Part shown: in pieces, positions 461 to 15,330 of the stretch
Numbering within the stretch: position 1 is the stretch's first letter
Layout: each line of letters opens with the position of its first letter
Origin: Candidatus Altimarinota bacterium
GTDB taxonomy: Bacteria > Patescibacteriota > Gracilibacteria > CAIRYL01
Length of the DNA stretch: 64,000 nt
Assembly: GCA_965250085.1 (NCBI GenBank)
Contig: OZ252287.1
Location: 672,001-736,000 of the forward strand
Reading direction: 5' to 3'
Position numbers and translations under genes: made by a program
The notes under the pieces: model-generated
Seen by the model: the letters and a program-made list of their open reading frames with translations, nothing else
Databases searched by the model: none
Told to the model about the DNA's origin: nothing

Positions 461-908
461 GGGGATGACTGGCTTTCGACAGGAAGAATGCCAGATATAT
501 AATTGCCATTCGGGGATTCGTTCTTTCCTCCCCGCATATCCGGAAAAAACACTATAAGTGCAAATACTTTTGCCTCTAAAGCTCAAAGGTTCTTTGCTCG
601 CTTCGCTCCTGCAAAGGTAGCGCCAGCATTTGCAATGGCCTAAGCTTTTTTCTCCGTTGAGCATAGCTCCGGAGAACGCTGTTCCTCTCTGTATCCTAAA
701 GTGGAAGGTAGCAGTGTAGACTTTTTTAGGACGTAATGTTTTTCTTTTGCCTCTTTTTAGAAACATTCTGTATACCTAAAAAGAAGCCTTTTGTGCGGCT
801 TTACGCCTCTCTTTTATCGCATAAGAGCACCCCTGAAGAGAAGCTATGATGGAAGATATTATGTATTTGCCTTTCTGGACGGGGGTTCGATTCCCCCCAT
901 CTCCACCA
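461..908 (+). ncRNA. ssrA: tmRNA
   Basis: 5' GGGGATG pairs with 3' CATCTCC-ACCA, with the G3:U Ala identity pair. 5' motif GGCTTTCGAC, T-arm GGGGGTTCGATTCCCCC. Tag frame 560-643 follows ATAAGT and reads ANTFASKAQRFFARFAPAKVAPAFAMA*. Confidence 0.97.
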
Positions 909-1416: not shown

Positions 1417-4400
1417 TTATTTGATTTTTGTCAAGTATATCCTGATCTTACTTTCATTGAGGACTATTTTCTGTTCAAAATGAGCATTTTTTATCTCTTT
1501 TTCAAATTTTATTTGCTTCGCCAAAACCTCTGCGGCAATTTCTTTTTCAAATTGCTTGAGAGTTGCTAAAGTGCTTTTTTCTCCTGCAACTGTAAGCTCT
1601 ATACGATCGGCAACATCAAATCCGGCCTCTTTTCGAGCATCTTGGACACAACGGACAAATTCTCGCATGAGTCCTTCATCTTTAAGTGATTCGGTAATAT
1701 TCATGTCGAGAGAAACCACAATGCCTTTAAACGAACTCACATCATGATCGCCTTTGCCATGATACTCCACTTCATAAGTTCCTTCCTCGAGGAAATACTC
1801 CCCTACTTGCACTCCTCCTTTGGTTTCTGTGTATTCACCTGATTTTGCCATTTGTATTACCTGCTGCATATTTTTCCCAAACACAGGACCCAATTTTCTC
1901 GCGTCTGGCTTGATGATGCATTCACATATTTCTTCTGCCGTTTTCATGAGCCTCACCTCTTTGACATTCAGTTCTTTGAGGATAACCTCTTTGTTGTCCT
2001 GCAAAGTATTTTGAGAAAATTTATGAGGAAGAAATACTTCTGCTTCCTGTAGAGGCTGGCGTAATTTGATTTTCTGTTGTGCTCTCAAAGAGAGCCCTAG
2101 GGAAATAATTGTCTCTACAACTTCAAATTCTCGCCTGAGCTCAGAATCATCTGGAAGATTCTCGAACTCAGGAAAATCTGTCAGATGCACGCTTGTTTGC
2201 TTGGTAAGATTTTGATAGATGTGCTCCGTCATAAAAGGAGCAAATGGAGCAAGTACCTGACAAAAAGTAGTCAATACTGTGTACAGCGTCTGAAATGCTT
2301 CTTCTTTATCTTGTCCCATCCCAGATTTCCAAAATCTTCGCCGAGAACGTCGTACGTATCCATTTGTAAGCTTATCAAGGAACACGCGAATATTTTTCAC
2401 TGCATTAAAGAGGTCATATCCTTCCATTTCTGTCGTCACATGACGCACAAGTTCTCTGAGCTCTGTCAAAATCCAACGATCAAGTTTTGCTTGCCCTGAA
2501 CCTGCCGAAGGGGAGTTTGGAGTTTTGAGTTTGGAGCTTTTTTTACTCCCTCCTCCCTTCTCTTCACTCCCTGCTGGCACCCATCCATCTATATTGGCGT
2601 ATGTCACAAAAAACGAATACGCATTCCAAAGAGGCAGAAATACATTTCGCATGTTTTCAAGTACTGCTTTTTCAGAAAATCTCAAATCATCTGCTTTGAC
2701 GACTGGTGAATTCATAAGCGTAAATCGCACGGCATCTACTCCAAAACGTTCAAATACTTCATGAGGATCAGGATAGTTTTTTTTGGATTTGGACATTTTC
2801 TGTCCGTCTTCGGCCAGCACAATTCCATTTACAATTACATTTTTGAACGCTGGTTTGTCAAAAAGTGCAGTGGAAAGTACATGCAAGGTGTAAAACCATC
2901 CTCGTGTTTGATCCAGTCCTTCAGCAATAAAATCCGCTGGAAAGTTTTGTTCAAATTTTTCTTTATTCTCAAATGGATAATGACTCTGAGCATATGGCAT
3001 AGATCCGCTTTCAAACCAACAATCAAGTACTTCTGAGACACGTTCCATTTCCTTTCCTGATGCAGAAAGAATTGTAACTTCATCAATATATGGCTTATGA
3101 AGATCTACCTCTCCTTTTGGATTTTCTGGTCGACCGTCAAAACTATAGATCTCATACTCCCCCGTATCCAGCATTACCTTCTCAGATCCTTTGGGATCAA
3201 AAAGGAACTCTATAGATTCATGAGTAAAAAACTTTCGGATAATGCGGGCCGGGTCTCCATGTGTAATCACGAGAATGTTTTTGTCACGATATTCTTTTTG
3301 GATCTCTCGTAAAAACTCGCTTGCTCTCTGTAAAACATCTTCCTGAGTTTCTCCGTTATGAGAGTTTCCGTAATATCGTTCATGTGCATCTGGAAAGAGC
3401 TTACGAAACTCCGTAAGTTTTTTGCCTTCACGATCTCCTACATCTACCTCTTTGAGTCTTTTATCAACTCGGATTTTCTTTGGATCTATCTCGAGTTGGG
3501 TAGCGACAATTTCTGCAGTTTGACGAGTTCTGAGAAGAGGTGAAGTAAAAATCATATCAATCTTTTCTTTTCGAAGCTCCTGTCCGGCGCTTTGTGCTTG
3601 GCTTTTTCCTTTCCCGGTAAGCTCGACTGTTGAATCTATTCGAGAATCAATAAGCCCTGTAATATTGTGCTTCCCTTCTCCATGACGCATTACAATTATT
3701 TTGGAGTTTTTCTGGCTTCGTTCTTGGAGTTCTTTGATTGAGCCAATACATTCTACTTCACCTGTTTCTGGGCATCGCCACACCGGCAATGGTGCTCCCC
3801 AGTATCGATTTCGTGAAATCGCCCAGTCCTGAGCATTTTCTAACCAGTTGTGAAATCTTTTTTGACCAATGGCTTCTGGTACCCAATGAACTTGCTTGTT
3901 ATTTTTGAGCATCTGTTTTTTGATCTTTTCCACGTGTATAAACCAAGTTTTGACCCCTCGATACATCAAAGCGCTGTCTGTTCTCCAACAATGGGGATAG
4001 CTGTGGCGCACGCGATCATGACGAAAGAGATGTCCTGACTTTTTAAGTTCTTCAACTACCCAATCATTTGCATTGCTTTCTTTGGAGCCTGGCACTTCTG
4101 GATCAGGGCGAAAATATTTTCCCTCAAGTTCGGAAATAGTGTCATCAAAAAAGCAATTCTCATCAAACGGATACAACAGTTCCACATTATGAGCCGTCAA
4201 GATACGAGCATCATCTTCTCCCGTTGGTGCCATGTGTACCACACCCGTTCCTTCCTCGTCAGACACAAAATCATCTCCAAAGATTTGAAAAGCATTTGCA
4301 TGGTTCTTGAAAAATGGGAAAAGAGGTTGGTATTTTTTGTATTTTTTCAATAACTGATTTCCCTTAAAAGTTTCAACTAATTCTGCCATATTGAGTTTAC

Positions 4401-5322
4401 TATATTTTTTAGACTCAAATATTTTTTTTGATAAAATAAAAAACTGAGAACCTGCCGAGTGCAAAGCTTGCTTATTTGCTTCTGTTGCAGTTGGATAAGA
4501 AGAAAATTTATAAATTATTTCTCCTGCATGATTTTTCCAAACATCCCTTTTAACTTTCACATACTCAATTTCTGGATGCACTACGAGTCCCAGGTTCGAG
4601 GGCAATGTCCAAGGCGTTGTTGTCCACGCCAAGATGTATGTAGGTTCTTCATTCGTAACTCGTAATTCGTTATTTGGCATTAACTGAAATTTTACCGTAA
4701 CGGCTGGATCATCAATGTCTTTATAATTGAGACCTGCTTCAAAATTGGAAAGTGGAGATCCCAATTTGGGAGAATAGGGAACGACTTTTTCTCCTTCATA
4801 GATCAGTCCCTTGTCCCAGAGACTTTTAAACACCCACCACACTGACTCCATAAACTCGGGATTCATGGTTTTATAGTCGTCTTCAAAATCCACCCAGCGT
4901 CCCATACGAGTCACTGTTTTTTTCCAATCCTCTGCACAGCGCATCACAATACTTCGACACAGTTCGTTATATTTCCCTACTCCCATACTTTCGATCTCTG
5001 GTTTGCCACCAATTTTATTTTCTTTTTCTACCTGAAACTCGACCGGTACTCCATGACAATCCCAGCCAAATCGCCGTTCAATGCGCTTTCCTCGCATGGC
5101 AAAAAACCGGGGGATCACATCTTTGATTGTTCCTGCAAGTATGTGTCCATAATGCGGCAGACCGGTTGCAAAAGGAGGTCCATCATAAAACGCATACCGA
5201 TCCTTCGTATCTCTCATTTCAATACTCTTGCGAAATATATCGTTTTTTTTCCAAAACGAAATGATATCACGTTCTAGTTGTGGGAAGTTTTGCTTTGGAT
5301 CAACTGACTGAAAATATGTCAT
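1417..5322 (-). CDS. ileS: Isoleucine--tRNA ligase (IleRS2 type) with an inserted histidine-phosphatase domain
   Basis: DGPPFATGLPHYGH, GWDCHG, WTTTPWTLP, DWAISRNRYWG and KMSKS motifs. Start moved to ATG 5322 (MTYF) because the upstream ORF extension overlaps the T-box terminator. Confidence 0.97.
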   Translation of the reverse strand: MTYFQSVDPKQNFPQLERDIISFWKKNDIFRKSIEMRDTKDRYAFYDGPPFATGLPHYGHILAGTIKDVIPRFFAMRGKRIERRFGWDCHGVPVEFQVEKENKIGGKPEIESMGVGKYNELCRSIVMRCAEDWKKTVTRMGRWVDFEDDYKTMNPEFMESVWWVFKSLWDKGLIYEGEKVVPYSPKLGSPLSNFEAGLNYKDIDDPAVTVKFQLMPNNELRVTNEEPTYILAWTTTPWTLPSNLGLVVHPEIEYVKVKRDVWKNHAGEIIYKFSSYPTATEANKQALHSAGSQFFILSKKIFESKKYSKLNMAELVETFKGNQLLKKYKKYQPLFPFFKNHANAFQIFGDDFVSDEEGTGVVHMAPTGEDDARILTAHNVELLYPFDENCFFDDTISELEGKYFRPDPEVPGSKESNANDWVVEELKKSGHLFRHDRVRHSYPHCWRTDSALMYRGVKTWFIHVEKIKKQMLKNNKQVHWVPEAIGQKRFHNWLENAQDWAISRNRYWGAPLPVWRCPETGEVECIGSIKELQERSQKNSKIIVMRHGEGKHNITGLIDSRIDSTVELTGKGKSQAQSAGQELRKEKIDMIFTSPLLRTRQTAEIVATQLEIDPKKIRVDKRLKEVDVGDREGKKLTEFRKLFPDAHERYYGNSHNGETQEDVLQRASEFLREIQKEYRDKNILVITHGDPARIIRKFFTHESIEFLFDPKGSEKVMLDTGEYEIYSFDGRPENPKGEVDLHKPYIDEVTILSASGKEMERVSEVLDCWFESGSMPYAQSHYPFENKEKFEQNFPADFIAEGLDQTRGWFYTLHVLSTALFDKPAFKNVIVNGIVLAEDGQKMSKSKKNYPDPHEVFERFGVDAVRFTLMNSPVVKADDLRFSEKAVLENMRNVFLPLWNAYSFFVTYANIDGWVPAGSEEKGGGSKKSSKLKTPNSPSAGSGQAKLDRWILTELRELVRHVTTEMEGYDLFNAVKNIRVFLDKLTNGYVRRSRRRFWKSGMGQDKEEAFQTLYTVLTTFCQVLAPFAPFMTEHIYQNLTKQTSVHLTDFPEFENLPDDSELRREFEVVETIISLGLSLRAQQKIKLRQPLQEAEVFLPHKFSQNTLQDNKEVILKELNVKEVRLMKTAEEICECIIKPDARKLGPVFGKNMQQVIQMAKSGEYTETKGGVQVGEYFLEEGTYEVEYHGKGDHDVSSFKGIVVSLDMNITESLKDEGLMREFVRCVQDARKEAGFDVADRIELTVAGEKSTLATLKQFEKEIAAEVLAKQIKFEKEIKNAHFEQKIVLNESKIRIYLTKIK

Positions 5323-5415: not shown

Positions 5416-5632
5416 AAAAAAATACACAGACACATATAGTATCTCTGCAAGGGTTCAAAATTGAACGGTACCACCTTGCTTCCCCGCTCTGCGGGGCAAC
5501 TTTATTTCTTTTGATCACGGAGTTATTTGGACTGATTCTCCGGAAGAGTCTACTTTTCGCCTGAGGCGAATTTCTTTCTTCGGCGCACTCCTCTCTGGAG
5601 TATTGTAAAGTGATTCCTTTACTCTAACGCTT
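5416..5632 (-). promoter_or_regulatory. T-box riboswitch (Ile) upstream of ileS
   Basis: Antiterminator GCAAGG-TGGTACC-GTTCAA-TT-TTGAAC-CCTTGC (5479-5447). Specifier AUC in the loop of GTAAAG-GAATCA-CTTTAC. Stem II with GAA/AGUA, a CCGTGATC Stem IIA/B-like motif, Stem III, and an overlapping terminator with a U7 tract. Confidence 0.9.
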
Positions 5633-5746: not shown

Positions 5747-6817
5747 TCAAGCTCTCATATTTTTCAGTTTCTGGATAGCTTTTGCATTCGCTGAAGGAAA
5801 TTTATATTTTCCGAATTCATGAGCCGGAATCCATTGTATTTCCTCGTGCTCTAAGCACTTTGGTGTGCCCTGCAAAATTTGGCATCGAAAAAATCGGATT
5901 CTCCATAAAAATTCACCATCCTCCCATACGTCTTCAAAAAAGTGAGGTCGTACTGAGACTTCGACTCCAAGTTCTTCCTGTATTTCACGTTTGAGTGCAT
6001 GCCTCCAGCTTTCGCCTTTTTCGCGTTTCCCGCCAGGAAATTCCCAAAAGCCACCCTGATTATCCGTTCGCTTGGCAATCAGATATTTTCTTTGGTGATG
6101 AATGCAAGCTGCTGCCACCTCTATCGCCGGTTTTAGAGAAACGATTTTTTTTCGTGGTGGAGAGAGCAAAGATTTTTCCCATTTTTCCTTTTTTCCACTT
6201 TGGAAAAATGAACACTCTGTTTGAAGTGGGCACACTTCGCATTGTACTCTTCTGCTCTGACAAAGAGTTGCTCCTAAGTCCATAAGTGTGTGGTTGAGAT
6301 TGGGAGCTTTTTTGTTGGCCAGCTCAAAAAGACTTTCTGATCGTTTTGGCAGCCCTTTATCGGTACAAAAAAATACTCGTTTTAAAACGCGCTTTATATT
6401 GGTATCTAATGCTGGAACAGGCTTATTGTATGCGAAACTCAAAATAGCAGATGCCGTATATTCACCTACTCCCGGCAGCTTCAGAAGATCGTTCCTCGTT
6501 CCTGGAAATTTGCCGCCAAATTCATCACAAATCATACGTGCCGTGAGCAGCATGTTTTTTCCACGTGAATAAAATCCAAGCCCCCTCCAGTACGGGAGAA
6601 TATCTTTCCATGTTGCTTCTGCAAGAGTCTGCACATCTGGAAATCGTTCCAAAAAGCGATGATAGTAGTCAATTACACGACTTACCTGTGTCTGCTGGAG
6701 CATAATTTCTGAAACCCAAACCTTGTACGGATCATGAGTATCTCTCCACAGTAAATCACGCTTTTTAGTTTTGTACCATTGCAGTAATTTAGAGGTGATG
6801 TTTTTATTTTTTTCTAT
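5747..6817 (-). CDS. mutY: A/G-specific adenine glycosylase MutY fused to a MutT-type NUDIX domain; start uncertain (non-ATG)
   Basis: WY..RDLLWR..DPYKVWVSEIMLQQTQV, LPGVGEYTA HhH motif, CX6CX2CX5C Fe-S motif, and Nudix box GGKREKGESWRHALKREIQEELGV. Frame is open to a TAA at 6823-6821. Confidence 0.9.
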   Translation of the reverse strand: MEKNKNITSKLLQWYKTKKRDLLWRDTHDPYKVWVSEIMLQQTQVSRVIDYYHRFLERFPDVQTLAEATWKDILPYWRGLGFYSRGKNMLLTARMICDEFGGKFPGTRNDLLKLPGVGEYTASAILSFAYNKPVPALDTNIKRVLKRVFFCTDKGLPKRSESLFELANKKAPNLNHTLMDLGATLCQSRRVQCEVCPLQTECSFFQSGKKEKWEKSLLSPPRKKIVSLKPAIEVAAACIHHQRKYLIAKRTDNQGGFWEFPGGKREKGESWRHALKREIQEELGVEVSVRPHFFEDVWEDGEFLWRIRFFRCQILQGTPKCLEHEEIQWIPAHEFGKYKFPSANAKAIQKLKNMRA

Positions 6818-15253: not shown

Positions 15254-15330
15254 TGGTGGACAATACTGGATTCGAACCAGTGGCCTCCCGCAAGTCAAGC
15301 GGGCGCTCTAGCCAACTGAGCTAATTGTCC
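15254..15330 (-). tRNA. tRNA-Val(GAC)
   Basis: GGACAAT..AGCTCAGTTGGCTAGAGC..CCCGC-TTGACTT-GCGGG..ACTGGTTCGAATCCAGT-ATTGTCC-ACCA. Full cloverleaf with encoded CCA. Confidence 0.96.

Follow-up and report, generated by a model that had tools for sequence, protein, structure and literature searches.

The 64,000-nucleotide (nt) stretch of DNA analysed here (hereafter the window; positions 672,001 to 736,000 of contig OZ252287.1 from a Candidatus Altimarinota bacterium) carries on its minus strand a leader RNA that is probably an isoleucine-specific T-box riboswitch controlling ileS, the gene for isoleucyl-tRNA synthetase (IleRS), by transcription attenuation. The leader (5634-5416) occupies part of the 424 nt that separate ileS from a MutY-like gene. 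To judge by its sequence, it sets a sensor of Class III architecture and a terminator output in the style of Class I on a three-way junction. An earlier note on this DNA had proposed a hybrid T-box class in a bacterium of the Candidate Phyla Radiation (CPR; Patescibacteria). The CPR setting is borne out by the names of the closest IleRS relatives, and the union of an apical specifier with a terminator is supported; its uniqueness is not, since the same design is common in CPR.

Specifier, cognate tRNA and sensor anatomy

The sensor contains an ultrashort Stem I of 6 bp, GUAAAG[GAAUCA]CUUUAC (5622-5605; free energy of folding, dG, -6.0; 0 of 200 shuffles as good), in whose six-base apical loop the isoleucine codon AUC occupies 5614-5612, with A5611 next. 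This triplet fits both the regulated gene and a tRNA-Ile(GAU) encoded in the same genome (1.37 Mb, one contig, 40% G+C). Further downstream, the T-box bulge UGGUACC (5473-5467), 7 nt long and beginning with UGGN, offers UGGU (5473-5470) as the complement of the ACCA 3' end of that tRNA (...GGUCC-A-CCA), its last U matching the discriminator base A73. The fold of the 231-nt leader as a whole has a z-score of -4.0, with none of 200 shuffles as stable.

Relatives of the leader are widespread in CPR genomes. A DNA search of 61 related genomes returned alignable leaders in the same family and the same order. A MAFFT alignment of six leaders misaligned Stem I between those with and those without the extra hairpin described below, and no model was built on it. 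The covariance model R1 (167 positions, 40 pairs) comes instead from three order-level ileS leaders that lack this second hairpin. R1 finds the window leader at 70.1 bits (E = 1.7e-18), as its single match in the 64 kb and in the whole genome, taking Stem I and the extra hairpin as a 36-nt insertion, so that the window's own Stem I lies outside its test. It also matches 9 of 20 genomes of the order, 38 of 151 genomes in a class sample, 32 of 151 in a phylum sample and, among sequences encoding IleRS relatives, 18 of 80 metagenome contigs and 20 of 80 named genome records. All 20 of these named records are Gracilibacteria, Peregrinibacteria, Peribacteria, Altimarinota, Patescibacteria or just 'bacterium' ('Candidatus Gracilibacteria bacterium' sits under the Patescibacteria group in NCBI taxonomy), and none of 57 records named as other phyla was matched. 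When 31 leaders were aligned to R1, 95.5% of cells held standard pairs, against 37-51% with the 3' partners slid, and 38 of the 40 pairs had changed on both sides; none of 500 shuffles attains any of these measures, in an alignment that is fitted to R1 and hence biased toward the structure.

The apical triplet is, on comparison of these leaders, the specifier, and its match to the downstream gene over varied stems is the strongest evidence for this role. The leaders compared derive from 97 model matches (69 + 28), leaving 85 distinct leaders after removal of duplicates; downstream genes were classed by tblastn against open reading frames (ORFs) named by NCBIfam, and in a check of 20 downstream ORFs NCBIfam bore out the gene name in 19. 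A census of all 64 triplets, scored wherever one lay 1 or 2 bases short of the loop's 3' end in a 5'-region hairpin with 4 bp or more, found AUC in the apical loop of 42 of 44 low-GC leaders (G+C < 0.60) preceding IleRS or ThrC-like genes, the exceptions being L060 and L072. The earlier note had held that an AUC loop not conserved in relatives would refute its reading; in these relatives the loop is conserved. The runner-up in the isoleucine set, UCA (33 leaders), represents the AUC site moved along by one base. GUC occurs in all 11 low-GC leaders before genes for valyl-tRNA synthetase (ValRS), AAC in seven of eight before genes of the aspartyl-tRNA synthetase (AspRS) type (the eighth has GAC), and UGG, together with a UGGC bulge, in the single leader of a tryptophanyl-tRNA synthetase (TrpRS) gene. 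Among high-GC IleRS leaders the census found AUC in 6 of 12. The stems that bear the triplet vary, with 17 distinct Stem I arms in 26 leaders parsed as three-way junctions. The census was preferred to a first hairpin picker, which often took promoter or extra hairpins; a rule taking the first GA-flanked hairpin parsed 77 leaders, 55 of them with a cognate codon in the loop, and gave no parse for five more.

The remainder of the sensor follows T-box anatomy in order. Stem II (5581-5543), recognized by folding and by the R1 alignment, reads GAAGA-AAGAAA-[UUCGCC UCA GGCGAA]-AAGUAGAC-UCUUC, with an outer GAAGA/UCUUC pairing (5581-5577 with 5547-5543), AAGAAA on its 5' side and AGUA (5554-5551) on its 3' side. 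The AAGAAA ... AGUAGA motifs are conserved in relatives and would be expected to adopt an S-turn. The two helices of Stem II, numbered 3 and 4 in the relatives' alignment, covary: pairing stands at 96.4% and 94.8%, and 11 of 11 pairs have changed on both sides. Stem IIA, CGGAG[15 nt]CUCCG (5542-5518; 5542-5538 with 5522-5518), is helix 5 of the alignment, 98.8% paired, and has the conserved CCGUGAUCA directly on its 3' side; an A-rich linker then joins the IIA region to Stem III, CCCCGC[AGA]GCGGGG (5496-5482; dG -11.6; 0 of 200 shuffles as good; helix 6). After AA comes the antiterminator, GCAAGG-UGGUACC-GUUCA[AUUU]UGAAC-CCUUGC (5479-5447; dG -11.2), whose 5' side is the T-box sequence AAGGUGGUACCG. 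The earlier note had read each of these elements from the minus strand, and every one is in the place it gave, with hairpins that fold as described and better than nearly all shuffles. Its combined Stem IIA/B element survives in part: IIA stands, while the sole candidate for IIB, AUCA (5536-5533) with UGAU (5517-5514), amounts to 4 bp with no linker after IIA and finds no support in the relatives' leaders. In place of this pairing, G001 and G004, relatives of the same family, carry an extended hairpin, and other CPR leaders show a clear pairing from loop to downstream strand (e.g. UUGUUUGC/GCAAAACAA).

The 5' domain appears to be a kink-turn (K-turn)-like base elaborated into a three-way junction. 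The leader opens with AAAAGCG (5634-5628), followed by UUA-GA, and a closing helix, assigned by the three-way-junction parse, pairs GCG(U) (5630-5627) with GCGC (5586-5583). Inside it, UUA-GA (5626-5623) stands on the 5' strand ahead of Stem I and AA (5604-5603) after it; AAU separates Stem I from the second hairpin. This extra hairpin, ACUCC[AGAGA]GGAGU (5601-5587; dG -6.9; 2 of 200 shuffles as good), forms the third arm. A codon-blind parser that looks in turn for a closing helix, a bulge, Stem I, 0-4 nt, a hairpin and the closing helix was applied to 27 leaders chosen by eye as bearing a second hairpin. Begun 50 nt upstream, it misread many leaders, and it was restarted at the leader 5' end, from where it parsed 26 of the 27; 23 were judged to have the expected arrangement, three parses (L155, L189 and L069) were judged wrong and L062 was left unparsed. 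None of 200 dinucleotide shuffles reaches the junction score of the window's 5' domain (0 to 35 of 200 for the other leaders). The usual junction text in relatives is ...UU-GA-[Stem I]-GA/AA-[hairpin]-..., and the extra hairpin keeps its position while varying in sequence, with 24 distinct arms in the 26 parsed leaders and no common loop. The three order-level ileS leaders without a second hairpin have a plain K-turn, AGC-NNNN-GA-stem ... stem-GA-GCU, with AUC in the apical loop.

Terminator and mode of control

Directly downstream of the antiterminator lies a hairpin resembling an intrinsic terminator, UGCA.AGAUAC[UAUAU]GUGUCU.UGUA (dG -12.1; 1 of 200 shuffles as good), followed by U7; the two together span 5449-5416. 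The hairpin occupies 5449-5423 and the U-tract 5422-5416, 93 nt before the ileS ATG at 5322, and the element is therefore too distant to hide a ribosome-binding site. With each state forced over 5500-5414, the terminator has -30.6 and the antiterminator -29.3 kcal/mol, a gap of 1.3, which suggests a near-balanced switch with the terminator as its default state. Once the antiterminator has formed, only a 6-bp hairpin is left, ending 5 nt before the U-tract, a gap predicted to be too long for termination. The earlier note had described a competing terminator: the hairpin and U7 are present, but the competition is confined to three shared nucleotides (U5449, G5448 and C5447) and thus to the four basal pairs of the terminator.

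Terminators of this kind recur behind the related leaders. The survey comprised 81 leaders, excluding three that matched in the 3' domain only (L063, L064 and L066) as well as L254, whose Stem I is long, and accepted one hairpin of at least 5 bp with dG <= -4, its end no more than 2 nt from a U-tract whose start lies 6-50 nt past the antiterminator; the parser of antiterminator ends failed on several leaders, and the end of the model match was also used. A hairpin with a U-tract was found in 57 of the 81: in 55 of 68 leaders with G+C < 0.60, against 820 of 13141 control positions at the same loci (6.2%), and in 2 of 13 leaders with G+C >= 0.60. Among surveyed leaders, terminator and antiterminator overlap by a median of 3 nt, the same length as in the window. 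Terminators are stronger in the same-family relatives G001 and G004 (-13.4 and -13.5 kcal/mol; the ORF of G004 starts 169 nt after the antiterminator), and several CPR lineages combine an apical-loop Stem I with terminators of -20 to -32 kcal/mol sharing 7-12 nt with the antiterminator. In the order-level leaders L036, L037 and L038, a common CCUUUCUUUC stands right after the terminator-like hairpin, 23-35 nt past the antiterminator, and forms the complement of GAAAGAAA, the conserved sequence in Stem II of these same leaders.

Control of ileS would likely proceed as follows. The leader RNA would start near AAAAGCG (~5634), and the 6-bp Stem I would present AUC, with the A that follows, in its apical loop, there being no distal platform for the tRNA elbow. 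By analogy with solved actinobacterial ileS T-boxes, the S-turn of Stem II may clamp the codon-anticodon helix. Uncharged tRNA-Ile(GAU) would then pair its A73-CCA end with the UGGU bulge and stabilize the antiterminator (5479-5447), which, by holding U5449-C5447, would block the lowest four terminator pairs beside the U-tract and let RNA polymerase read through into ileS. Without tRNA, or with a charged one, the terminator (5449-5423), slightly the more stable of the two structures, would form with U7 behind it and transcription would stop 93 nt before the ATG.

Several observations weigh against attenuation by this route. The terminator and antiterminator share only 3 nt; the terminator stem is rich in A/U and G.U pairs and has an internal G.G mismatch; and when 5481-5414 is folded alone without constraint, the antiterminator forms alongside a shortened hairpin. 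Among the low-GC leaders, 13 of 68 failed the terminator criteria. Across the genome, hairpins with U-tracts are only about two-fold more frequent after long ORFs than inside them (98 of 701 vs 48 of 701), and a generic terminator scan was not above shuffles (23 vs 16.2 +/- 4.4). The match to the Rfam T-box model RF00230 (29.3 bits with relaxed filters, E = 1.1e-4 on 551 nt) is far below the gathering threshold of 93. Finally, transcriptional T-boxes are generally described as depending on a long Stem I whose elbow-binding motif captures the tRNA quickly (PMC7583486). The weak, mismatched terminator with its short overlap and the modest genome-wide enrichment would also suit a real sensor joined to an inefficient terminator, with an output such as leader processing or stability, pausing or factor-dependent termination, or else a switch that governs only part of ileS transcription owing to a second promoter downstream of it. 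Such a promoter could be the TCGCCA-17-TATAAT sequence (5370-5342, minus strand; 10 of 12 matches) between the U-tract and the ATG, which could drive T-box-independent basal transcription of ileS. Sites of this type are, however, not above chance (3 found vs 1.5 +/- 1.3 in shuffles), and the U-tract right behind the hairpin in most low-GC leaders, against 6% of background positions, and the strong, well-overlapping terminators behind the same kind of Stem I in other CPR lineages speak for termination, leaving an inefficient terminator or partial control unlikely, if worth bearing in mind.

The other readings have considerably less in their favour. Two accounts of ultrashort T-boxes describe them as translational (10.1101/2023.02.28.530422; PMC10482949), and a translational switch in which an alternative helix hides the ileS ribosome-binding site, as in Actinobacteria, seems to exist in the same phylum: the high-GC leaders L232, L233, L234, L241 and L246 (G+C 0.68-0.71) share the short Stem I with AUC and have, beside the AUG, a GCGAGG able to pair with the antiterminator strand CCUCGC, and a U-tract is missing in L232, L233, L234 and L246 (by the script, L241 has a short hairpin and U5). 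These leaders look like a translational platform inside CPR. In the window, however, the switch helices stop 93 nt before the ATG with U7 directly behind the hairpin, the ATG has no purine-rich Shine-Dalgarno sequence in front of it and 5415-5323 offers no complement to the antiterminator strand, and translational control of this ileS is very improbable. Equally hard to sustain, and if anything more so, is a canonical long Stem I (5630-5561), with AGAGA as its AG bulge and the specifier (AUU or UUC) in GAAAUUCG on the 3' side. Rfam's cmscan does place CAGAGA and GAAAUUCGCC on those positions of RF00230, but the alignment forces many non-standard pairs on the long stem, while the T-box sequence, Stem III and antiterminator align well. 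It was rejected on comparative grounds: AGAGA is conserved in no relative and, given the lack of a shared hairpin loop, is not a conserved AG bulge; GAAAGAAA-hairpin-AGUAGA covaries as Stem II in 31 leaders; and same-order relatives without the extra hairpin keep the apical AUC. RF00230, which the earlier note had named as a check, gave a score below threshold and a well-aligned 3' domain. That score, and the status of the element as the sole T-box of a reduced 1.37-Mb genome, could also suggest a decaying or chance resemblance with no regulatory function. This too is barely credible for a leader whose fold and R1 match are significant, whose bulge and specifier match the tRNA exactly and whose structure covaries across families. 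Weak RF00230 matches elsewhere in the genome have E = 0.197 and 6.57, and R1 gives one site only. Transcription attenuation through an isoleucine-specific T-box, well backed by the comparison with relatives, remains the preferred reading.

Relation to described T-boxes

T-boxes serve as a model of how one RNA reads another. Current reviews associate the long Stem I and its elbow platform with fast, kinetic decisions in transcription, and the short Stem I with slow, equilibrium control of translation. Ultrashort Stem I's are placed in translational T-boxes (PMC7583486), as a class that is translational and whose members all regulate ileS (preprint 10.1101/2023.02.28.530422). Class III is defined by a short Stem I whose specifier lies in an apical loop of five or six nucleotides and by its need for Stem II, with Classes III and IV said to 'mostly' control translation (PMC10482949). 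The earlier note's background, in which terminal-loop specifiers belong to translational ileS T-boxes and transcriptional ones have a long Stem I, agrees with these three sources. The short-Stem-I model of TBDB is reported to have been used only on Actinobacteria and on truncated class I matches. The searchable literature yielded no description of CPR T-boxes, though an earlier listing is possible, for example in supplements.

The window leader resembles the Class III ileS T-boxes of Actinobacteria (Mycobacterium smegmatis, M. tuberculosis and Nocardia farcinica) in its short Stem I without an elbow platform, in the AUC plus purine in a five- or six-base apical loop, in a Stem II with S-turn motifs that is followed by IIA (IIA/B in Actinobacteria), Stem III and the UGGN bulge, and in the gene regulated; R1 also matches high-GC ileS leaders of the Class III kind at 33-55 bits. 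It departs from them in its output, which lacks a Shine-Dalgarno sequestrator and has the hairpin and U7 in its stead, in its CPR host, in the extra hairpin that turns the base of Stem I into a three-way junction, and in a IIB pseudoknot that is not evident. Unlike the ileS-only ultrashort class, the CPR design also serves valine, asparagine/aspartate, tryptophan and probably glycine. With Class I transcriptional T-boxes (Bacillus subtilis tyrS; RF00230) it shares the K-turn-like base of Stem I, the S-turn motifs of Stem II, Stem III, the T-box sequence and a terminator helix, backed by a U-tract, in competition with the antiterminator; it differs in having no long Stem I, specifier internal loop, AG bulge or distal double T-loop platform (IDTM), as well as in the short helix overlap and the RF00230 score under gathering. 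Relatives have -10-like boxes (TACAAT, TATAAT or TAGAAT) ~8-12 nt 5' of the conserved AAAGCG, which would leave no room for a longer Stem I. In the window, a candidate promoter read by eye, TTGAGA (5668-5663) and TAGAAA (5646-5641) with a 16-nt spacer, falls below the criteria of the promoter scan; it would start the RNA near A5634, just 5' of AAAAGCG.

The junction itself recalls the k-junction, in which the non-bulged strand of a K-turn carries an additional helix (PMC10573300). The secondary structures agree in their succession of closing helix, 2-3-nt bulge, GA, Stem I, AA/GA, inserted hairpin and return strand. The window differs in having GA on the bulged strand and AA on the other, so that the second sheared pair would be A.A rather than A.G, and the likeness is one of sequence pattern. 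We know of no T-box described with a k-junction.

More broadly, CPR/Patescibacteria may hold a large, undescribed branch of T-boxes with a minimal apical-specifier Stem I, often k-junction-like, routinely joined to terminators and specific for isoleucine, valine, asparagine/aspartate, tryptophan and glycine, a proposal for which the chances appear about even. If the CPR switches act co-transcriptionally, the elbow platform would be no kinetic necessity for transcriptional T-boxes, and natural short-Stem-I T-boxes with terminators would make the kinetic argument directly testable; if the proposal is true, the actinobacterial translational ileS class would be an offshoot of a broader, possibly older design. 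The sensing of amino acids through tRNA charging would then be a common device in otherwise regulator-poor CPR bacteria. Such leaders score far under threshold and mark a blind spot of the Rfam model, and compact transcriptional tRNA sensors (~190-220 nt) would be on offer for engineering.

Other leaders and neighbouring genes

T-boxes with non-isoleucine apical loops are found in L048, L051, L057, L058, L059, L065 and L227-L251. Those before ValRS genes (9 ORFs named by NCBIfam) carry GUC, often in a larger loop with a conserved UAAU-GUC-A; AAC or GAC leaders precede AspRS or Asp-tRNA(Asn) ligase genes (9 ORFs), and UGG precedes TrpRS (1 ORF). L074 and L156 have an AUC apical loop with IleRS downstream and a UGGC bulge, which implies a G73 discriminator in the cognate tRNA; L161 has UGGA. 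L063 and L066 combine a UGGA bulge with GGC+A in the apical loop of a short hairpin and a 17-nt linker to Stem III, have neither a long Stem I nor Stem II, and are followed by terminators of -14.5 and -13.2 kcal/mol. The next long ORF of L063, ~330 nt downstream, is GlyRS-like (glycyl-tRNA synthetase) by its N-terminus only. Both leaders are probably T-boxes of this class specific for glycine, and seem to dispense with the elbow platform as well as Stem II. To our knowledge, no minimal T-box of this type has been described.

In L034 (384-2210, 2667-6494) and L035 (404-2239, 2202-2693, 2799-6668), both of the same family as the window genome, the isoleucine T-box precedes a row of genes that runs from a PALP enzyme (ThrC/IlvA superfamily) fused to a LeuA allosteric domain, through a RidA homologue (L035 only), to ileS. 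An isoleucine-responsive operon would fit the AUC specifier. Unlike these, the window genome has ileS directly after the leader.

Upstream of the leader, the MutY-like gene (5747-6703) encodes HhH-GPD and NUDIX domains. At the gathering threshold, Rfam reported no matches in the 64-kb window beyond a transfer-messenger RNA (tmRNA) gene (461-908, plus strand; 108.3 bits) and one tRNA gene (15257-15330, minus strand; 67 bits), and thus did not list the T-box. Downstream, ileS (1417-5322, minus strand) encodes an IleRS of 1301 aa from the ATG at 5322, with tRNA-synt_1, Anticodon_1 and DUF5915 domains and an inserted histidine-phosphatase domain. The insert, a complete His_Phos_1 (residues 542-707), sits within the catalytic core of IleRS, and likewise in L034 and L035.

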